From: a virus
Taxonomy: Duplodnaviria > Heunggongvirae > Uroviricota > Caudoviricetes
IMG/VR virus record: IMGVR_UViG_2565956726_000008
DNA: 64,000 nucleotides
Reading direction: 5' to 3' (one strand)
The position numbers were made by a program, and so were the translations under genes. Positions 2,649-16,819 of this stretch are shown here, piece after piece. Positions within the stretch are counted from its first letter, which is position 1, and each line of letters begins with the position of its first letter. The notes below the pieces were generated by a model that made no database searches, was not told the DNA's origin, and worked only from the letters and a program-made list of their open reading frames with translations.

Positions 2649-3031
2649 AACGCAGCGAAGTTTACGACGAAATAAGGGATTGGATTCAATCCCACGGATA
2701 CGATGAAGGCTATATTTTGCAGGCCCGTTTCTGGAATGAGCGAAGTAATTCGAATAATGACAGATACATCGTGATCCAGCAAAACGGCGGCGCGGCTGGT
2801 GAGGAAGCAATAACCCGTGATTATTTCCGCATCCTGGTTATTTCAGCGCGTAATGATGCAAATATCAGTGAGGTGGAAGACCTTGCCGATGCCATCCGTC
2901 AAAGTATGTTAACAGAATATAAAACTGATAAAATTACACACATGAAGCCAGTTGGCGCTATTCCTGCAATACAGACAAGAGAAGGGCGCTTTATTTTTAC
3001 CGTAGCCTTTCAAACCATCATATCAAGATAA
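2645..3031 (+). CDS. tail terminator-like protein, putative
   Basis: 128-aa ORF overlapping previous stop (ATGA), directly upstream of the tail tube gene. Confidence 0.35.
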   Translation: MKRSEVYDEIRDWIQSHGYDEGYILQARFWNERSNSNNDRYIVIQQNGGAAGEEAITRDYFRILVISARNDANISEVEDLADAIRQSMLTEYKTDKITHMKPVGAIPAIQTREGRFIFTVAFQTIISR

Positions 3032-3044
3032 GAGGTAAATTAAC

Positions 3045-3521
3045 ATGTCTCAGACTTGCGAAAAAGGCACGTTTACAGGCCGTGACGTTGCTGTATTCTT
3101 CGCTATCGCTTGTCCAAATGCGAAGCCGGAAGTTGGAGCGTACAAAGCGTTAGGCATGATGCGTGGTAAAACACTTTCCGTTGAATGGGAAACCGCTGAC
3201 GCCACCGCCGATAAATCAGCCGATTACACGAAAGAATCAATGGTTACTTACAAATCCGTTTCTTTCTCCGGCGACGGTGTGTCCCGCACTGAAGAAATCC
3301 ATAATCAGAAAGCGCTGAAACGCCACGTAATTACGCCAGGTGAAACCACCGGATCACAACCTTATGTATGGCTGAAGATCGTTTCTCCTGTAGACGTAAC
3401 TGAAGGCCCATTCCTTTGCACTTCCTTTAAAGAAGAAGATCCGCATGATGATGTTTCCACCTGGTCTATTGAGTGCGAAAGCGCTGGCAAGGTAACGGTA
3501 GGCGACGTTCCGCCAGCATAA
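3045..3521 (+). CDS. major tail (tube) protein, putative
   Basis: 158-aa ORF with RBS, followed by its own terminator hairpin; position between neck genes and chaperone/tape-measure genes. Confidence 0.5.
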   Translation: MSQTCEKGTFTGRDVAVFFAIACPNAKPEVGAYKALGMMRGKTLSVEWETADATADKSADYTKESMVTYKSVSFSGDGVSRTEEIHNQKALKRHVITPGETTGSQPYVWLKIVSPVDVTEGPFLCTSFKEEDPHDDVSTWSIECESAGKVTVGDVPPA

Positions 3522-7739: not shown

Positions 7740-7745
7740 ACTAAA

Positions 7746-7775
7746 TCCCGGTGCAATGCCGGGGTTATTTTTCGT
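7746..7775 (+). terminator. rho-independent terminator after tape measure gene
   Basis: cccggtgcaatgccgggg hairpin followed by TTATTTTT; near-identical hairpin sequence to the terminator at 1198-1229. Confidence 0.55.
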
Positions 7776-7825: not shown

Positions 7826-8080
7826 TCACTTATGAGTGCCTTTCACGCCACATAACTTGTTATAGGCATGGTGCTCAACAATTAACCAAACCTTCAAATC
7901 TTCGCTAAACAGCCTCCAATCAAGATTGATATCCATTTTGTATCCGTAACCGTCGCGTAACTTTTTGGGGTAAACTTCTTTTCTCAGAAAGGCTTTAAGT
8001 AATTCCTTACCTTTCTTGATGATCCGGTCCTGTGCGTTTTTCTGTGCTTTCAGATTTCTGTCAATCGCTACCAGTTTCAT
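7826..8080 (-). CDS. hypothetical protein, possible RelE/YoeB-like toxin (moron cassette 2, distal gene)
   Basis: 84-aa minus-strand ORF; loose resemblance to YoeB/RelE-type toxins (QDRIIKKGKELLK; DWRLFSEDLKVWLIVEHHAY). Assignment is weak. Confidence 0.35.
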   Translation of the reverse strand: MKLVAIDRNLKAQKNAQDRIIKKGKELLKAFLRKEVYPKKLRDGYGYKMDINLDWRLFSEDLKVWLIVEHHAYNKLCGVKGTHK

Positions 8081-8097
8081 AACTCACCCCATCATCC

Positions 8098-8253
8098 TTA
8101 GTTAAGTGCCTTCAGGAAGAAGTCCCGGTATTCATCTTCTTTCGCATTCATCATGAATTGACCGTATTTGAATGCGTCGTCGAAACCCTTAACGATTGCT
8201 ATTTCCACTTGTTCGAATGCGTTATTTAGCATTACTACTACATAGCGTTTCAT
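8098..8253 (-). CDS. small hypothetical protein (moron cassette 2, proximal gene; candidate antitoxin)
   Basis: 51-aa ORF not in the provided track (below 60 aa); ATG at 8251-8253 preceded by GGAGG at correct spacing; stop 17 nt upstream of the 84-aa gene start. Confidence 0.4.
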   Translation of the reverse strand: MKRYVVVMLNNAFEQVEIAIVKGFDDAFKYGQFMMNAKEDEYRDFFLKALN

Positions 8254-8420: not shown

Positions 8421-8774
8421 ATGCCGGAAGTGTTCAGATGGACGCCGCAAAGAAGCTACAGCGTGACCAGGAAGCCAGACGTATCTGTTGTTAAGCTGGG
8501 CGATGGTTATGAGCAAAGACAGGTAAAAGGTATCAATCCATTGCTTGATAGCTACACCCTGGTGTTTAAAGGCAGTAGCGCCGGATGTGGTGATGGTGGA
8601 AACGTAGCAATCCAGGCGGAAGCATTCTTGAGGGCGCGCGGCGCGGTCGAGGCTTTTTACTGGTCGCCGTCAATGGATAACGTGCAAAGGCTTTTTGTCT
8701 GTCGGCAATGGAGCATGACTAAAGACGGGCCTTTGTACACGCTAAACGCAACGTTTGAGCAAGTTGTTGGCTAA
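8421..8774 (+). CDS. minor tail protein M (lambda gpM homolog, divergent)
   Basis: 117 aa; shares lambda M hallmarks (FRWTP..., KLGDGYEQR, C-terminal FEQVVG). Confidence 0.8.
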   Translation: MPEVFRWTPQRSYSVTRKPDVSVVKLGDGYEQRQVKGINPLLDSYTLVFKGSSAGCGDGGNVAIQAEAFLRARGAVEAFYWSPSMDNVQRLFVCRQWSMTKDGPLYTLNATFEQVVG

Positions 8775-8971
8775 TGGGGGTTGTTATGTACGGGACTTGT
8801 GTAGTTGACAAAACTTACGCTTTTACATTGTTTGACGACTATGAGATCAACGACCTTACTGTAAAAGCTGACAACGGCGATATATGGTATCTTCACGACG
8901 TTGGTGATGGGTACGTTGGGTGTAGATCCCGGGAAGGGAAGGAGGTTTTATTTTTGGTTGATGGCGTATAA
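8774..8971 (+). CDS. hypothetical protein translationally coupled to M
   Basis: 65-aa ORF starting in TAATG overlap with M stop; no lambda counterpart between M and L. Confidence 0.4.
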   Translation: MGVVMYGTCVVDKTYAFTLFDDYEINDLTVKADNGDIWYLHDVGDGYVGCRSREGKEVLFLVDGV

Positions 8972-8975
8972 ACAC

Positions 8976-9003
8976 GACCCCGCGCGAAGCGGGGTTATTT
9001 TTA
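8976..9003 (+). terminator. rho-independent terminator
   Basis: ccccgcgcgaagcgggg hairpin followed by TTATTTTTATT. Confidence 0.5.
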
Positions 9004-9127
9004 TTCTATTTCCATTAATGCTATATTTTCTGCTATCGTTTTCCAGTCCAGATCTACAGCATGAACGCCAAATACTATCAACCCCATTATTATTAGCGCC
9101 AAAACTTCTATTTTTATAATCAGTCAC

Positions 9128-9376
9128 CTATAAGTTATCACGCAGATAATTAACGCCCTTATCAGTGACGAATGAATGGTTAACCTGGTTTTCATCCGTC
9201 ATGATGATGAATAACTTTTCATGTAGGTATTTCGCTTTCGGGTACAGCGTTAAACAGACCTGGTACAGTATCCCGCGCTCAATCAGCAAATCAATAAATT
9301 CGTGTTCATGATAACCGATGAGGCGGGCGGCCTGTTTCAACGTGTACACATAATCACCGTGATTGCGCCGCCCCAT
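9128..9376 (-). CDS. hypothetical protein with HTH-like segment (moron cassette 3, gene 3)
   Basis: 82-aa minus-strand ORF; YTLKQAARLIGYHEHEFIDLLIERGIL resembles MerR/excisionase-type helix-turn-helix. Confidence 0.45.
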   Translation of the reverse strand: MGRRNHGDYVYTLKQAARLIGYHEHEFIDLLIERGILYQVCLTLYPKAKYLHEKLFIIMTDENQVNHSFVTDKGVNYLRDNL

Positions 9377-9385
9377 GTTGCCGCC

Positions 9386-9733
9386 TTATTTATCGAATGC
9401 TGAAAGGTTATCGATACAGAAATCTTTCGCCGCTTTTTCGTATTCGCGTTTTGCTTCTGGATCGTCAGCCGGGAAACCTTTTGCGTGTATTTCACCAGGG
9501 CAAGACTGGTCCATAGAATCTGCATAATAAGCAGTGAAGCTACCATTAATATCTTTCGGGTTCATATCTTCCACCTCATCAACTATCTGTACCGGATTAG
9601 CAGCATATTTCACTGGATGGCCTAAACTACATTCAAGAATCCTGCCTTCTTCCAGGGCTACTTCTTCGCTATCAAATAATCCGAAACACTCCTTGCTACC
9701 ACTTAACCACACATCAAGACTGTATTTTTTCAT
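9386..9733 (-). CDS. hypothetical protein (moron cassette 3, gene 2)
   Basis: 116 aa from internal ATG (MKKYSLDVWLSG...); the 149-aa listed ORF would overlap the upstream gene extensively. N-terminus appears paralogous to gene 1. Confidence 0.45.
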   Translation of the reverse strand: MKKYSLDVWLSGSKECFGLFDSEEVALEEGRILECSLGHPVKYAANPVQIVDEVEDMNPKDINGSFTAYYADSMDQSCPGEIHAKGFPADDPEAKREYEKAAKDFCIDNLSAFDK

Positions 9734-9902
9734 TTTTGTTAGCCTCATATTTGACAGGTTCGATCTGGTATCCCAAAAGGCGGTCATCCTCAGCAAGTAA
9801 AAGCGCGTCAACCAATGCTTCACCCTCGTCGTCATACAGGGCGATAACCTTTTCCCTACCGTCTGTCATGAATACCGTCAACTTCCATAGCTTTTCAGTC
9901 AT
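9714..9902 (-). CDS. hypothetical small protein (moron cassette 3, gene 1)
   Basis: 62 aa from internal ATG (MTEKLWKLTVFMTDGREKVIALYDDEGEALVDA...); overlaps gene 2 by 20 nt. Confidence 0.4.
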   Translation of the reverse strand: MTEKLWKLTVFMTDGREKVIALYDDEGEALVDALLLAEDDRLLGYQIEPVKYEANKNEKIQS

Positions 9903-10031
9903 AACGCACCTCCGCGCCATTTTGTTAACTATGCTTCCGTTTGAGTAAAATATACATATTGTAAAAACCGCGATCAATCCATTTTGGTATGATTTAGCGT
10001 GACGCAGATCACAGAATGACAAGGTGAGAAA

Positions 10032-10736
10032 ATGCGCAATATTCCGAGAGAAATGATTATTGATTCCGTCGATGCCGGAGTCGGCGCGGTAATTGACTTG
10101 TTTGAATTAGACCTCACGCCCCTGGGTGGCGAGGTTATCCGCTTCCATTCCGGCGTGAATGGCTATTACGGCCCGGTTATCTGGAAGGGGGTGGCTTACA
10201 ACAGCTACCCTATCGAGGCCACTGGCTTCGAAATGAAAAACGAGGGTGTCTATTCACGCCCGCAAATGGTTGTAGCCAACATTGGCGGCCTAATCACCGG
10301 GATGAATAACGATTTCAACGACCTGCGAGGAATGAAAGTTACACGCCGCCAGGTGGAAGTAAAATACCTGGACGCCATCAACTTCCCCAACGGCAACCCG
10401 GATGCAGATCCGTCTATCGAGGCGGTGTCTTTTTACGTCGTTGAGGCGATGAGCGAAGAAACAGCCGACCAGGTGCAATATGAGCTGTCAACGCCAATTG
10501 ATGCTGACAAGGCGGTTATCCCAGGGCGCACAATCCTTGCTGACGTTTGCCAATGGCAATATCGCGGCGACGGTTGCGGATACAGTGGCGGCCCTGTAGC
10601 TACTGATAAAGACGAATCGACCAGCGATCCAAAGCTGGATAAATGCAGCCACCGCCTGAGCGGTTGCCGTTTACGTTTCCCGCGCCCGAATCCGTTACCA
10701 ATTTCATGTTTCCCAGGATCGAGCAAGGTGGGTTGA
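10032..10736 (+). CDS. minor tail protein L (lambda gpL homolog, divergent)
   Basis: 234 aa; alignable with lambda L (e.g. WQYRGDGCGYSGGPVA vs lambda WTYRGDECGYSGPAVA). Confidence 0.85.
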   Translation: MRNIPREMIIDSVDAGVGAVIDLFELDLTPLGGEVIRFHSGVNGYYGPVIWKGVAYNSYPIEATGFEMKNEGVYSRPQMVVANIGGLITGMNNDFNDLRGMKVTRRQVEVKYLDAINFPNGNPDADPSIEAVSFYVVEAMSEETADQVQYELSTPIDADKAVIPGRTILADVCQWQYRGDGCGYSGGPVATDKDESTSDPKLDKCSHRLSGCRLRFPRPNPLPISCFPGSSKVG

Positions 10737-11470: not shown

Positions 11471-11943
11471 ACGTTGATACGCCAGCACAAGGACTTAGCC
11501 TATTGACCGCGCAGAATCAGGAGTTCAAGAAGGCTTTTTTAAATACACCTTTGCGGTTACGGATTGCCGGGAAAGATTATAACGAAAAGACGGCCCCGGC
11601 AGCGGTTAATAGTAAATACCCTGACGGAACTACCGTCATTATTGCGCCAGTAGTTGAAGGCGGTATTGCTGGGATTGGTGTTGTAGGCTGGATCCTGATT
11701 GGTGTTTCGGTGGTTAGCGTTGCGTTCTCAATCTTTATGTCCCGCAACATGAAGATAAAAACATCGGCAGAAAGCGCACAAGATAACACCATAACGAACA
11801 ACACCTACACCAGCATTGAAAACAAGGTGGGCCAGGGTAGACCAGTGCCAATACTATTAGGTGAAATGAAAATAGGTTCAAACGTCGGATCGTTAGGCAT
11901 AGACACAAGCAACAATAGAGACGCCTTAGACGTTGTAAGTTAA
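11413..11943 (+). CDS. tail assembly protein I (lambda gpI homolog, divergent)
   Basis: 176 aa overlapping the 3' end of K as in lambda; C-terminus LLGEMKIGSNVGSLGIDTS resembles lambda I LYGEMRVGSRVVSQEIST. Confidence 0.7.
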   Translation: MLKFRFTGNLRRYYGKVCLNVDTPAQGLSLLTAQNQEFKKAFLNTPLRLRIAGKDYNEKTAPAAVNSKYPDGTTVIIAPVVEGGIAGIGVVGWILIGVSVVSVAFSIFMSRNMKIKTSAESAQDNTITNNTYTSIENKVGQGRPVPILLGEMKIGSNVGSLGIDTSNNRDALDVVS

Positions 11944-11956
11944 CAGGAGAAAAACC

Positions 11957-14900
11957 ATGAGTAGCGGCGGCGGCAAAGCCAAAACACCAACATTATTGAA
12001 CGATAACCTGTATCACAAACAGTTTTATCGTGTTTTAGATATTCTCAGCGAAGGGCCGATATACGGTCCGGTAAACCAGAAAGCGCCATTGAATGACGTG
12101 ATGCTTAATGACACTCCTGTTACTGACGCAAACGGGAATACATCAATTCCGGGGATTAGTATAGCCTGGCGCAACGGCACGGCTGACCAATCGCCGATTA
12201 ATGGTTTTAACGCCATTGAGTCAACCGTTATTGTCAACGCAAAGGTAACTCACGACACACCAATAATCAGGACTGTTTCAGATCCAAACGTTACCCGCGT
12301 CAGGTTGAATCTTGGTGTTGATGCTCTCGTTCAGTCAGATGAAAAGGGCAATCAATATAATACATCCGTCATGTTGATGGTTGATGTTAAACCGTCATCA
12401 TCTTCTACGTGGTCGCTGATTAAAGACATACACATTGGCCCTGGTAAACAAAGCGGTGAATACCTGGAAGCTCACATCATTAAAGCGCCGGATGAAAAAC
12501 CGTTTGATATTCGCGTTCGTCGCATAACACCAGACAGCAACGGCGATCTATTGCGGAATGATACGCGGTGGAGTAGTTACAGCGAAATAATAGATGATAA
12601 TCTGTCTTATCCTCATACCGCTGTAGCTGGCGCCGTAATTGACCATGATCAGTATACTGATACGCCTACCCGCACCTATCACCTTCGCGGCCTGATTGTT
12701 GATGTGCCTGACAACTACAACCCTGAAACGCGCACATATTCAGGTTTATGGCTTGGTGGATTTAAAAAGGCGTATACCAATAACCCTGCATGGCTTTTCC
12801 GGTATCTGGTTAAAAACGAGCGCTTTGGACTTGCTCGACATGCTGGTTACATTGATGTTGATGATGGCGCTTTGTACGTGCTTTCTCAATACTGCGATCA
12901 GTTGGTTGATGATGGCTATGGTGGCCTTGAACCTCGCATGACGCTTAACGCTTACATTACGGAGCAAATGAGCGCCCGCGACCTACTGGATAACATCGCA
13001 GGTATGTTCCGTGGTATCGCGTTATGGGACGGACAACGTCTTACCGTGATGATTGATGCGCCACAAGATCCAATCGCCACCATCACAAATGCAAACGTCG
13101 TTGATGGCGCGTTTACTCGTTCAAGTATCGCACGCGCAGAATGCTACAACGCCGTGATCGTATCCTGGACTGACCCTGAAAACGGCTGGGAGCAATCAAA
13201 AGAATATGTCGCAGATGATAAACTAATCGCCCGTGATGGTTATAACGAAACCACGTTGGAGGCGTTCGGTTGCACTTCACGCGGGCAAGCGCACCGCGCT
13301 GGTAAATGGCTGATCGAAACAGCGAAACGCGAGCCGTCAAAATTCACATTTAAAATGGCCCGTGACGCCATTCACTTTACGCCGGGGGATATAATCGAGA
13401 TCCTCGATAATAATCGCGCAGGCGCTCGTTTAGGCGGTCGCATCGTGGCGAACAATGGCAGAGCGATCACGGTCGACAAGGTTGATTCTGAATATATCGC
13501 GGCTGGCGACACCATCAGCTTACTTGATAGCGATGGTAAATTTAAAAAACACCAGATCATCGGAGTTAACGGGAACATTATCACCCTTGCAGCCGCCCCG
13601 GCGTGGATTCGTAACGGCACTGTTTTTGCTGTATCAACCAACGCAGCAAAACCCGTTTTATGTCGAATCACCAGTGTAGCAGAAACAGAAAATAACAGCG
13701 TATACACCATCGAGGCCGCACAGCATGATCCACATAAGCAGGCCGTAGTCGATAATGGCGCAATCTTCGAGATCAATAACGACACGCTTAATCACTTCCG
13801 CGTGCCGAACATTGAAAATCTGAAGGTGTTAAACGTTGGATCTGAAACGGTTCAATGTCGCGCAACATGGGAAACACAGACGACAACGCGTCGCCTGACC
13901 TTTGAGATTCGCGTGTATAACGCCGAAGGCGCTGTAGTTAAAAGCTACGAAACCACGAATTACAGTTATGATTTTTATGGCATTGATGCTGGCAACTACT
14001 CATTAGGCATTCGTGGCAGAAATGACACGGGCATGAAGGGTGCGGAAAGCATTGTCGATCTGGTTATTGGCGCACCAGCGGCCCCAGTTGGCGTTAATTG
14101 GGTTCCCGGTGTATTCCAGGCTACAGTTTACCCGATCAGCAGAACAACGCTCACCACTGATACCAGTTACGAGTTTTATTACTCAGGTGAAACGCAGATC
14201 ACTGATCCGGCATCAATAACCACTAAAGCACAATATACCGGGCGTGGTCATCAGTGGACGTTTGGCGGCATGAATACAGGTCACACATATTACGTTTATG
14301 TGCGCGCGCGTAACGCTTTTGGTGTGTCTGACTTTGTGGAAGCGTCAGGTAAGCCAACAGAAAACTTTGATGAAATTACCGATTACGTCACCAAAGACGT
14401 AATGAATTCCAAACAATTTAAAGAAATGGTTGGTGACATTAAAGATCTAGGCGACCGCACTGATCTTATCGAAAGCGCTACGAATGACCTTAAAACTGCT
14501 ACTGACAACCTCAAAACTGCAACTGATAATCTGACCAACATAACTGACGATTTAAGGACTGAAACTGACAACCTAACCATAGAAACAGGATCAATAAAAG
14601 CTGATACTGATACGCTCAAAAAAGAAACGGAAGATCTTTATAAAAAAGTTAAGGAAAACGCCGATGATATTGGACAGCATGAGTCGAGAATCGACTCGCT
14701 GGAGGTGTCTAGCGAAAAAGTTGGCAGCGAACTGGCGCAAGCAAAAGCAAGTCTGCAAAACGCCTCACTTGCTCTTATTAATAACTCGCTTGCACAGACT
14801 AACACTCGCGTAACTCTTACCGCTCAGTACAAGAAAGGCAGGACAGAGACGAAAGCGGAAATTGACCGCATTGACAACGTTATCGCTGAAGAGAAAAAAG

Positions 14901-16819
14901 CGACAGCGGAATCACTGGAAACCATCACGGCAGAAATGAATGTGATGGACACAAACCTTAAAGGTCAGATCTCTAATGTGCAACGCGCAGTAGCTGACGA
15001 GGCCAGCGCCCGCGCTGAAGCTATTAACGGTGTAAATGCCTCAATAAGCAATCTTGACAAGAAAACTGACGCCAGCGTAAACCGTCTTGATCAGGCAATT
15101 GCAGACGAAACAAGTGCGCGTACTCAGGCTATCAGCGACGTGAACGCAAGTATCTCAACACTTGACAAGAAAACTGACGCCAGCGTTAAGCGCCTCGATA
15201 ATGCAATATCAGATGAAACGCAGGCAAGAAGCGACGCAATAACAGTGGTTAAAGCTGATTTAACAACGCTTGAAAATAACACAAATGCCAGTGTTAGCCG
15301 TCTTGATCAAGCTATCGCTGATGAATCAAGCGCACGTGCTCAGGCGATATCAGGTATCAGCGCGACGCTTGGCGGCGTTAAAAGTGAGGTTGATAAAAAC
15401 AGCGACGAGATAGATCAGGCGAAAGCAAGTCTGCAAAACGCATCTCTGGCGCTTATTAATAACTCAATGGCGCAAAGCAAGATGAGCACTGTTATTGAGG
15501 CGAAATACAGGAAAGGACAAACAAAAACAAAAGCGGAAATAGCAAGGGTAGACACAGCAATCGCAGATGAGGCGAGCGCACGCGCAGAAGCTATTAGCGG
15601 GGTTAATGCGTCAATTTCCACGCTCGATAGCAAGGTGACAAGCAACGTAACCAGGATGGATAAAGCGATCGCAGATGAGAAGAATGCACGCACTGACGCA
15701 ATCAGCAGCCTTAACTCATCGCTTACCAGTACGATTAATTCGAAAGTATCCGAAGTGTCAACTGCACTTTCTACGCATGAAACATCAAGCGCGGAAAAAT
15801 TTGGCCAGATCTCGGCATCTTTCGACGATGTAAACTCAAGCATCACGGAATGGTCACAGGCTATGGCAACGGCAGACGAGGCATTGTCAACCAGAATCGA
15901 CCAGTTGAAAGTAACTATTAACGGAAACACAACGGCGATAGAAACGACATCAAAAGCACTGACTGACTTCAAAGGTAACGTTGATGCGTCATATTCAATT
16001 AAGATTGCCACTGATAAAAACGGTATGAAATACGCTACAGGAATGTCGCTCGGCCTTACTGGTAGCGGGACTAACGTTCAATCGCAGTGTATTTTCCTCG
16101 TTGACCGTTTCGTGCTTATGACTGCGGCAGGTGGCTCCTATCAGACCCCGTTCTATGTTACTAACGGTGCTTGCTACATCCGTGATGCGTGGATCAGAGA
16201 CGCATCAATCACTACCGCGAAGATTGCGCAGCAAATTCAGTCAACCAACTATAAAGCTGGTTCGGCTGGCTGGATGCTAAATAAAAACGGCAATGCGGAG
16301 TTCAACAACGTCACTGTACGCGGTACGGTGTACGCAACATCTGGTAAATTCACTGGTGAGATTCAGGCCACAAGCGGGAAGTTTAAAGGTACAGTAGAGG
16401 CAAAGTCATTTGTCGGTGACGTTGCTAACATGGGGGTTGGTCCAGATCGAGTGCTTGGGCATAACGGAAGTTATAGCGCAACCATCACATATAAAGACAG
16501 CACGGATAATGCATTGACGAAATCAGTTATGCTTATGGCGACTATTTCATTAATGTCTGGTGAATATAGATCCACTTATAACGTAACGTTTAGTTGCGGA
16601 GATAAAAACAAAACAATTTCATATTACGTGCCTTATGGTGGATGCACATTAACAGTGCAATGCGCTTTTTCTGGTTTAAAAGCATCAGATATTATCGGGA
16701 AAATATATTGTCCTCAAACATCATCATCTGAAGGATACGCATATTGTACCGCGTTGTATTCTCCAACAATGATAGTAGCAAGAGGCACCGGATCATTTAG
16801 AACATCAACGACAGCATAA
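11957..16819 (+). CDS. host specificity / central tail fibre protein J (lambda gpJ homolog with extended repeat-rich fibre region)
   Basis: 1620 aa; N-terminal 1100 aa alignable with lambda J; followed by about 450 aa of coiled-coil-type repeats and a distinct C-terminal domain not resembling the lambda J LamB-binding end. Confidence 0.85.
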   Translation: MSSGGGKAKTPTLLNDNLYHKQFYRVLDILSEGPIYGPVNQKAPLNDVMLNDTPVTDANGNTSIPGISIAWRNGTADQSPINGFNAIESTVIVNAKVTHDTPIIRTVSDPNVTRVRLNLGVDALVQSDEKGNQYNTSVMLMVDVKPSSSSTWSLIKDIHIGPGKQSGEYLEAHIIKAPDEKPFDIRVRRITPDSNGDLLRNDTRWSSYSEIIDDNLSYPHTAVAGAVIDHDQYTDTPTRTYHLRGLIVDVPDNYNPETRTYSGLWLGGFKKAYTNNPAWLFRYLVKNERFGLARHAGYIDVDDGALYVLSQYCDQLVDDGYGGLEPRMTLNAYITEQMSARDLLDNIAGMFRGIALWDGQRLTVMIDAPQDPIATITNANVVDGAFTRSSIARAECYNAVIVSWTDPENGWEQSKEYVADDKLIARDGYNETTLEAFGCTSRGQAHRAGKWLIETAKREPSKFTFKMARDAIHFTPGDIIEILDNNRAGARLGGRIVANNGRAITVDKVDSEYIAAGDTISLLDSDGKFKKHQIIGVNGNIITLAAAPAWIRNGTVFAVSTNAAKPVLCRITSVAETENNSVYTIEAAQHDPHKQAVVDNGAIFEINNDTLNHFRVPNIENLKVLNVGSETVQCRATWETQTTTRRLTFEIRVYNAEGAVVKSYETTNYSYDFYGIDAGNYSLGIRGRNDTGMKGAESIVDLVIGAPAAPVGVNWVPGVFQATVYPISRTTLTTDTSYEFYYSGETQITDPASITTKAQYTGRGHQWTFGGMNTGHTYYVYVRARNAFGVSDFVEASGKPTENFDEITDYVTKDVMNSKQFKEMVGDIKDLGDRTDLIESATNDLKTATDNLKTATDNLTNITDDLRTETDNLTIETGSIKADTDTLKKETEDLYKKVKENADDIGQHESRIDSLEVSSEKVGSELAQAKASLQNASLALINNSLAQTNTRVTLTAQYKKGRTETKAEIDRIDNVIAEEKKATAESLETITAEMNVMDTNLKGQISNVQRAVADEASARAEAINGVNASISNLDKKTDASVNRLDQAIADETSARTQAISDVNASISTLDKKTDASVKRLDNAISDETQARSDAITVVKADLTTLENNTNASVSRLDQAIADESSARAQAISGISATLGGVKSEVDKNSDEIDQAKASLQNASLALINNSMAQSKMSTVIEAKYRKGQTKTKAEIARVDTAIADEASARAEAISGVNASISTLDSKVTSNVTRMDKAIADEKNARTDAISSLNSSLTSTINSKVSEVSTALSTHETSSAEKFGQISASFDDVNSSITEWSQAMATADEALSTRIDQLKVTINGNTTAIETTSKALTDFKGNVDASYSIKIATDKNGMKYATGMSLGLTGSGTNVQSQCIFLVDRFVLMTAAGGSYQTPFYVTNGACYIRDAWIRDASITTAKIAQQIQSTNYKAGSAGWMLNKNGNAEFNNVTVRGTVYATSGKFTGEIQATSGKFKGTVEAKSFVGDVANMGVGPDRVLGHNGSYSATITYKDSTDNALTKSVMLMATISLMSGEYRSTYNVTFSCGDKNKTISYYVPYGGCTLTVQCAFSGLKASDIIGKIYCPQTSSSEGYAYCTALYSPTMIVARGTGSFRTSTTA
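14455..14640 (+). repeat. tandem 21-bp (7-codon) repeats inside J
   Basis: Encodes ATNDLKTATDNLKTATDNLTNITDDLRTETDNLTIETGSIKADTDTLKKETEDL; repeated gctactgacaacctcaaaact-type units. Confidence 0.5.

Follow-up and report, generated by a model that had tools for sequence, protein, structure and literature searches.

A predicted accessory operon encoding a stand-alone KilAC protein between the M and L tail genes of mEp021-like coliphages

Why should a group of small genes be encoded on the minus strand inside a phage tail module, and what might their products do? The question arises from a 64,000-nt stretch of DNA (the window), of which positions 1 to ~19,500 correspond in an alignment to the right arm of mEp021-type phages. 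The original prediction described three tightly packed minus-strand genes, here named P1, P2 and P3, between tail genes M and L, and took them for a cargo operon of the toxin-antitoxin, exclusion or abortive-infection type. All three reading frames were recovered where they had been placed, with the length of P2 corrected from 116 to 115 aa, and their position was confirmed by matches of the flanking genes to the Pfam families of M and L. A longer P2 frame of 149 aa (9386-9835) was rejected as it is not conserved in relatives, and the start beginning MKKYSL was used. A fourth small open reading frame, P4, located between P3 and the terminator, had been overlooked. The genes of the region are as follows.

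8421-8774, M-like minor tail gene (PF05939, E=1e-27)
8774-8971, plus strand, s65, a small open reading frame after M
9001-9117, minus strand, P4, gene for a small single-pass membrane peptide, 38 codons here
9128-9376, minus strand, P3, 82 aa, a stand-alone KilAC (ANT, PF03374) domain protein
9386-9733, minus strand, P2, 115 aa
9714-9902, minus strand, P1, 62 aa, the first gene of the operon, with a Shine-Dalgarno sequence GGAGG at 9913-9909
10032-10736, L tail gene (PF05100, E=9e-72)

The reading frames of P1 and P2 share 20 nt in the window. The cassette interrupts the junction between M and L, which are adjacent genes in lambda, and it differs from both in base composition, with a G+C content of 0.41-0.44 against 0.51 for M and 0.53 for L.

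That the open reading frames are more than chance is evident from a comparison of 51 loci, which comprised the window, two phage records, E. coli chromosomes, one Logan contig and IMG/VR contigs. P2 and P3 are present in every locus and P1 in 49, and the gene order L, then P1-P2-P3, then s65 and M, then the ParE-like gene a51 is kept throughout. Selection estimates (Nei-Gojobori) gave a dN/dS of 0.24 for P1, 0.24 for P2 and 0.11 for P3, compared with 0.05 for L and 0.08 for M. Homologues of P4, 38-45 aa long (MKIEVLALI.MGLIVFGVHA.D.DW...), were found in 35 loci and were absent from the remaining 16, with a dN/dS of 0.11-0.15. Every open reading frame of the cassette is under purifying selection, and the cassette consists of four real coding genes. 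Around this common core the interval from L to M ranges between 1,200 and 1,895 nt in length. Seven loci carry an additional gene of 77-93 aa between P2 and P3, and ten carry an additional 67-aa gene downstream of P3. In two loci (L009 and L038) an unrelated 52-aa gene stands in place of P1, and in L009 the N-terminal half of P2 is likewise replaced, P3 being retained in both.

The region of the window is identical (100%) to that of E. coli M1/5; when 5,426 complete genomes of E. coli were searched, 35 had a match. It shows 82-88% nucleotide identity with phages mEp021, mEp010, mEp013, mEp044, mEp515, mEp554 and MagusPhagus. The orthologues in mEp021 are mEp021_74, _73 and _71, and other records of the mEpimmI group (MH706966, PP180001-5) have the same genes in the same place; in deposited records of mEp021-type phages they are labelled only as hypothetical or as a putative antirepressor. 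The mEpimmI group is described as non-lambdoid, Nus-dependent and mostly not UV-inducible, and these phages are reported to be as common as lambdoid phages in E. coli isolates from the human gut (PMC11893012). A search for the cassette as a unit away from M and L, in a plasmid collection and in other phage types, found none. Because synteny is maintained in all loci and the unit never occurs elsewhere, the cassette is an ancestral, fixed accessory region of mEp021-like coliphages and was not acquired by this prophage. This disagrees with its original description as cargo and with the idea that it might travel independently: comparative genomics found it in the same place in every relative, and neither on plasmids nor elsewhere was it found as a unit outside this phage lineage.

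The original prediction had also remarked that the N-termini of the first two proteins look paralogous, and this view gained ground. P1 and the N-terminal half of P2 (P2-N) match each other by BLASTP (E=7e-5, 35% identity over 52 aa) and by profile-profile comparison (hhalign, E=0.0033), and both are predicted to adopt the same beta-beta-alpha-beta topology (pLDDT 81-90). In the AF2 model of P1 (pLDDT 81) the order of elements is E3-12, E17-23, H26-37 and E42-52, and residues 1-50 of P2 are modelled with a pLDDT of ~88. We consider the N-terminal paralogy of P1 and P2 to be moderately supported. P1 is acidic (net charge -6.5), belongs to phrog_29559, and has homologues in 20 clusters, each of which comes from E. 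coli or from phages of this species. Its most frequent length among the loci is 51 aa. The overlap with P2 is not conserved, because P1 of the mEp021 record is 51 aa long and ends 12 nt short of P2. No match to P1 or P2 was found in Pfam, NCBIfam or PADLOC, and Pfam scans carried out member by member across both families gave nothing consistent. The name 'transporter' attached to P1 in RefSeq was rejected, as no NCBIfam model lies behind it. Fold searches with P1 and P2 returned generic matches only, and the fold class of P1 and P2-N recurs, with low scores, in many very small proteins of phages, AcrIC8 and T7 Gp2 among them.

Both domains evolve fast. For P2-N, dN is 0.34 and dN/dS 0.27, compared with a dN of 0.03 for L, and the non-synonymous rate of P1 and P2-N is 6-10 times that of the flanking genes. 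P2-N falls into six allele types that are mosaic relative to the rest of the gene, and the allele types of P1 and P2-N recombine freely and are shuffled against a near-constant P3. The second half of P2 (P2-C) is of a different kind, and the gene can be divided as follows.

9566-9733, minus strand, P2-N domain, residues 1-56, a hypervariable P1 paralogue
9571-9577, minus strand, internal Shine-Dalgarno sequence GAGGTGG, 5 nt 5' of the Met57 ATG (9565-9563)
9386-9565, minus strand, P2-C module, residues 57-115, 59 aa, acidic and nearly invariant, ...DSMDQSCPGEIHAKGFPADDPEAKREYEKAAKDFCIDNLSAFDK

Residues 70-115 are almost invariant, and dN/dS for P2-C in the family alignment is 0.10. The AF2 model has low confidence for residues 55-88 and predicts a helix at 92-113. 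Nearly every P2 allele has retained (G/A)AGGTGGA and the ATG after it amid variable surroundings; Met57 itself is nearly invariant and coincides with the start of stand-alone versions of P2-C. One such gene is found in E. coli MFDS1019527 (L009), where P1 and P2-N have been swapped for other small genes. Another lies on an unrelated 121-kb viral contig (L054) and is 80% identical; the genes in L009 and L054 encode 59-60 aa. A distant version occurs among small accessory genes of virulent Sashavirus-like phages (L004). On the 121-kb contig and in the Sashavirus-like phages P2-C is found without P3. Because the C-terminal module exists as a gene of its own that starts at the equivalent of Met57, P2 is, as judged by sequence comparison, a fusion of a fast-evolving P1-like domain and a portable, acidic module of 59 aa with its own ribosome-binding site. 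It is conceivable that P2-C may also be translated separately from the internal start.

A profile HMM of P2 searched against 1.84 billion representatives retrieved only the P2 family and the stand-alone C-modules, and among 185,579 species-representative genomes P2-C was absent, the only hits being two spurious fragments from Verrucomicrobia. The peptide sequences of the cassette had no match in published text. The full-length P2 profile gave a match to HepS, a HEPN protein (PDB 9oij), with E=0.11 over 'P.D.P...FCI.NL.AF'. It was rejected as chance; the match disappeared when a profile of P2-C only was used, and P2 lacks the Rx4-6H motif.

None of the three proteins had been recognised at first as a member of a described family. 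This does not hold for P3, which is a Pfam KilAC/ANT protein above threshold and already carries this designation in its RefSeq name, and all three are found in PHROG families, albeit families of unknown function, and are annotated in records of mEp021-type phages. P3 (phrog_5689) scores 29.4 bits against PF03374, for which the cut-off is 25.3, and residues 10-82 align to positions 23-105 of the 108 in the profile; its homologue clusters carry the same domain. The HTH-like segment noted earlier in this protein stands as a segment, and Pfam now assigns it to the beginning of the KilAC domain. Among the 51 loci P3 is 88-100% identical, and its dN of 0.035 is on a par with that of the tail proteins. 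Its nearest kin outside the lineage are the KilAC parts of full-length Rha/Ant proteins in phages of Vibrio, Cronobacter and Hafnia (32-38% identity).

Activities have been reported for three related proteins. CreP, a stand-alone KilAC protein of 103 aa, is bacteriostatic, causes filamentation and co-precipitates FtsZ (bioRxiv 10.1101/2024.01.05.574328). Phi11 Gp07 has a KilA-C part that inhibits growth, with filamentation (PMC5944126), and the KilAC domain of AriS from Listeria phage phi10403S suppresses the SOS response, probably via RecA (PMC9043618). CreP, encoded by the CreAP module of Acinetobacter baylyi, resembles P3 in design: each is made up of one KilAC domain and lacks a DNA-binding domain at its N-terminus. 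Of the motifs AKxLxL and TxKG, which are reported as conserved in CreP and in the KilA-C of phage P1 (bioRxiv 10.1101/2024.01.05.574328), the second is shared by our P3, where it reads TDKG, while AARLIG retains two of the four fixed positions of the first. The two proteins differ in that CreP is encoded within a CRISPR-Cas locus, where a CRISPR-like RNA represses it, whereas P3 is shorter (82 aa) and phage-borne, and an Rfam scan found no such RNA. AriS and phi11 Gp07, on the other hand, are two-domain regulators of the Ant type with an AntA/B or Bro-N domain, which P3 lacks, and their genes belong to the early or regulatory regions of phages of Firmicutes, whereas P3 is located inside a tail module.

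The three genes had been considered a compact reverse-strand operon with a promoter of its own, facing a terminator at 8976-9003, and the control elements found in the sequence are in agreement with this.

9998-10013 (10013-9998), CRP-like palindrome TGTGATCTGCGTCACG, one mismatch to the 16-mer consensus
9949-9977, minus strand, predicted sigma-70 promoter, TTGATC at 9977-9972, a spacer of 17 nt and TATATT at 9954-9949
8976-9005, bidirectional intrinsic terminator, common to the convergent M-s65 transcript and the cassette

A sigma-70 consensus is placed upstream of P1, and it is conserved among relatives: 34 distinct sequences have an invariant -10 hexamer and a nearly invariant -35 hexamer. 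The whole intergenic region between P1 and L (129 nt) has 0.10 differences per site, compared with 0.44-0.51 in the flanking genes when synonymous sites are counted. The palindrome is the sole exact TGTGA-N6-TCAC within the 64-kb window. Its half-sites are invariant across relatives, while the spacer is free to vary (0.30 per site). Its centre falls at about -63.5 relative to a start predicted 7 nt 3' of the -10 hexamer, the classical position being -61.5 (or -71.5, etc.). TGTGATCTGCGTCACG is therefore predicted to be the signature of a CRP site in a class I position. It is also possible that the palindrome is the operator of a phage-encoded regulator rather than a CRP site; similar palindromes occur in mEp021 at 12165 and at 16519-16534, which is a modest enrichment. 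The terminator is real as a sequence pattern. Its stem (8976-8996) has 8 pairs, of which 6 are G-C, and is followed by a T-run on the plus strand; the minus strand scores as well, with a weaker T-run, and a terminator is annotated on both strands in the mEp021 record.

What then is the cassette for? The account that we prefer, and to which we give slightly less than an even chance, is that it forms the conserved core of an accessory ('moron') operon that is transcribed independently, driven by host RNA polymerase, and encodes small proteins directed at the host. Morons are accessory transcription units inserted between late genes, for example lambda lom and bor or HK97 gp15. The cassette resembles them in being extra DNA of distinct G+C content between genes that are neighbours in lambda, in having, at the sequence level, a predicted promoter and a terminator of its own, and in that its content differs between relatives. 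It is unlike them in comprising four genes rather than one, in lying antisense to the late operon and in being fixed in the lineage rather than sporadic. Searches revealed no homology of the cassette proteins to structural proteins, and the orthologues in the mEp021 record bear no virion label.

In such an arrangement the operon, divergent from tail gene L and convergent to M-s65, would be transcribed by host RNA polymerase, probably together with cAMP-CRP, while late (tail) transcription from the opposite strand is silent, as it is in the lysogen and in the first moments of infection. The products may be small cytoplasmic binders of host proteins. By analogy P3 would act like other isolated KilAC domains, of which those of CreP and phi11 Gp07 block division and that of AriS damps SOS. 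P2-C, the most conserved stretch of which is predicted to be disordered, could be a separate peptide that binds a host factor, with P1 and P2-N as rapidly diversifying partner or specificity domains, and P4 would be a small inner-membrane peptide that is apparently being lost in this prophage. Four points count against this account. The predicted CRP site departs by one or two bases from the classical spacing; the activities known for KilAC are those of distant relatives (Listeria, Staphylococcus and Acinetobacter) and are mutually discordant (division block versus SOS inhibition); P3 falls short of CreP in length and has only part of the AKxLxL motif; and a constitutive growth inhibitor in a lysogen would need a means of control.

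It is tempting to speculate further that P2 represents an undescribed modular family of coliphage effectors, in which a hypervariable beta-beta-alpha-beta specificity domain, present a second time as P1, is joined to a portable peptide that temperate and virulent phages have in common and that is also translated alone and aimed at a conserved host or defence protein, and that together with P3 it places division or SOS in lysogens of these non-UV-inducible phages under cAMP-CRP control. We regard this larger scheme as quite improbable. If catabolite control governs expression of the cassette in lysogens and P3, like its relatives, acts on FtsZ or RecA, this would be a simple natural example of a prophage tuning division or SOS to nutrients. 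P2-C, which virulent phages have as well, would represent a small host-binding module of a new kind. If none of this is true, these are ordinary uncharacterised phage accessory genes. What sequence comparison supports most directly is a phage accessory operon that contains a stand-alone KilAC protein. The KilAC-like protein orthologous to P3 is already known as near-core in the mEpimmI pangenome (PMC11893012). New relative to that study and to the deposited annotations are the paralogy of P1 and P2, the fusion with its internal start, the portable P2-C, P4 and the CRP-like promoter.

A different target would be implied if P1, P2-N and P2-C were acidic inhibitors that serve counter-defence or host takeover at the onset of infection and have diversified in an arms race. 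The strong acidity and small size of the proteins are as expected for such inhibitors, and so are the accelerated non-synonymous evolution and mosaic alleles of P1 and P2-N; the presence of P2-C in strictly virulent Sashavirus-like phages and on the 121-kb viral contig points the same way, as does, with low scores, the fold class shared with AcrIC8 and T7 Gp2. However, none of the proteins has homology to known anti-defence proteins, and the CRP-type promoter and the position in the late region fit expression in the lysogen at least equally well. Moreover dN/dS is below 0.3 and there is therefore no direct signal of positive selection. We consider counter-defence rather unlikely.

The toxin-antitoxin or abortive-infection reading of the original prediction, in which P3 would be a bacteriostatic toxin and P1 and/or P2 acidic antidotes or sensors that release it upon infection by another phage, fared less well, and we now find it distinctly unlikely. 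It keeps some standing since bare KilAC proteins may be toxic, as the bacteriostatic, FtsZ-precipitating CreP and the growth-inhibitory KilA-C domain of phi11 Gp07 illustrate. P1 and P2 are also small, acidic and encoded upstream of P3, their genes overlap in the window, the combination of a hypervariable P2-N with an invariant C-terminal part resembles a sensor-effector layout, and a ParE-like pair is present in a neighbouring island. The only link of the cassette to known toxin families is nevertheless that of KilAC through the CreP literature, and PADLOC, Pfam and NCBIfam support no component as a toxin-antitoxin or defence protein. A type II system is expected to belong to a known family and to consist of a coupled pair that moves as a unit, and neither was found with these three resources and in the 51 loci. 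The overlap between P1 and P2 is not conserved, unrelated genes separate P2 from P3 in seven loci, and the types of P1 and P2-N are exchanged freely beside an almost invariant P3. Where P1 (in two loci) or P2-N (in one of them) is replaced, P3 is kept; conversely P2-C occurs without P3 on the 121-kb contig and in Sashavirus-like phages, and the unit is never mobile independently of this phage lineage. An Rfam scan around P4 for antisense or type I toxin RNAs found nothing.

It is very unlikely that the cassette is a switch of the phage itself, comparable to P22 immI, with P3 as a minimal antirepressor or transcription factor that is modulated by P1 and P2 and that, by way of CRP, couples induction or late gene expression to nutrient supply. 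The P22 ant operon is also found among late genes, and KilAC is a hallmark domain of antirepressors of the Ant type; we know, however, of no repressor interaction or operator for P3. It is conserved like a core gene and near-core in the pangenome, and these phages are mostly not UV-inducible (PMC11893012), so another route of induction is plausible for them. Against this, the KilAC domain of AriS acts on the SOS system of the host, and the palindrome has the form of a canonical CRP site and not that of a phage operator, even if mEp021 has a similar one at 16519-16534.

Superinfection exclusion, in which P4 and cytoplasmic partners would block entry of incoming phage DNA in the manner of other small membrane proteins with genes among those of the tail, has precedents in HK97 gp15 and T4 Imm and Sp, and could draw on the conservation of P4 as a single-pass membrane peptide under purifying selection in most loci and on its company with P2-C on the 121-kb contig, but is highly improbable: P4 is missing from 16 of the 51 loci and has lost its start codon in the window while P1-P3 are intact, so that P4 cannot supply the core function, and in mEpimmI phages exclusion has already been demonstrated for a lipoprotein encoded at another place in the genome (PMC11893012). 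On the 121-kb contig the P4 gene lies directly 3' of the stand-alone P2-C gene. At its start codon 28 loci have ATG, 7 have ATA and 1 has GTA; the window and its near-identical relatives have the change from ATG to ATA, which leaves a 33-aa open reading frame with a TTG start at 9001-9102.

A further minus-strand island is found in the tail module of the window at 7826-8253 (-), with the tape-measure gene on one side and M on the other. The features of this island, and of the ORF that follows M, are:

7744-7766, bidirectional terminator at the end of the island
7826-8080, minus strand, second gene of the island pair, 84-aa basic protein (pI 9.9), PF24732
8098-8253, minus strand, first gene of the island pair, 51-aa ORF, phrog_29810
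8774-8971, plus (tail-operon) strand, s65, 65-aa acidic ORF, phrog_3249

The 84-aa protein matches the ParE-like toxin domain PF24732 with 45.3 bits (cut-off 24.4), and the pair is kept in 46-48 of the 51 loci compared (the window and its relatives) with a dN/dS of 0.07-0.08. For a toxin-antitoxin role this ParE-like pair is a better candidate than the P1-P2-P3 cassette, the minus-strand genes between tail genes M and L. The start of s65 is placed on the M stop codon, and the ORF is found in all 51 loci (dN/dS 0.15); lambda, unlike the window, has no counterpart of it.

In relatives the M-L interval may hold optional genes (L007 1219-1500 and 798-1001; L008 921-1160; L033). One type, located between P2 and P3, encodes 77-93 aa, another follows P3 and encodes 67 aa, and L033 has an HNH-like fragment; no Pfam match was obtained for any of them. 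The C-terminal 59-aa module of P2 also occurs as a stand-alone gene, directly followed by a membrane peptide like P4 of the cassette, at 2971-3301 of a 121-kb viral contig (L054, IMGVR_UViG_3300045988_157310). The genes adjoining this pair match only PHROGs of unknown function, and no nucleotide match to the contig was found in phage or plasmid collections.

The predicted cassette promoter of the window (9985-9949 (-)) resembles an mEp021 promoter at 11925-11970 (L057), located 3' of the repressor gene and 5' of gp16-gp17. Common to the two are CAAAATGGATTGA, which includes the -35 hexamer, and GTATATT, which includes the -10 hexamer; the cassette promoter of mEp021 itself shows less similarity. 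Exact TGTGA-N6-TCAC palindromes are present in the mEp021 early region at 16519-16534, which is intergenic, and 12165-12179; with one mismatch allowed the first 20 kb hold 9 matches against 3.7 expected. Possible roles for these early-region palindromes are binding of CRP or service as operators for a regulator encoded by the phage.

Similarity to mEp021-type phages stops at about 19.5 kb in the window (about 19,539). The following 5.5 kb are 99% identical to part of the phage vB_EcoS-683R6 record, annotated there with an integrase, a zinc transport protein and host-like genes, and the window from about 19,539 onward is probably the prophage end and attachment-site neighbourhood.
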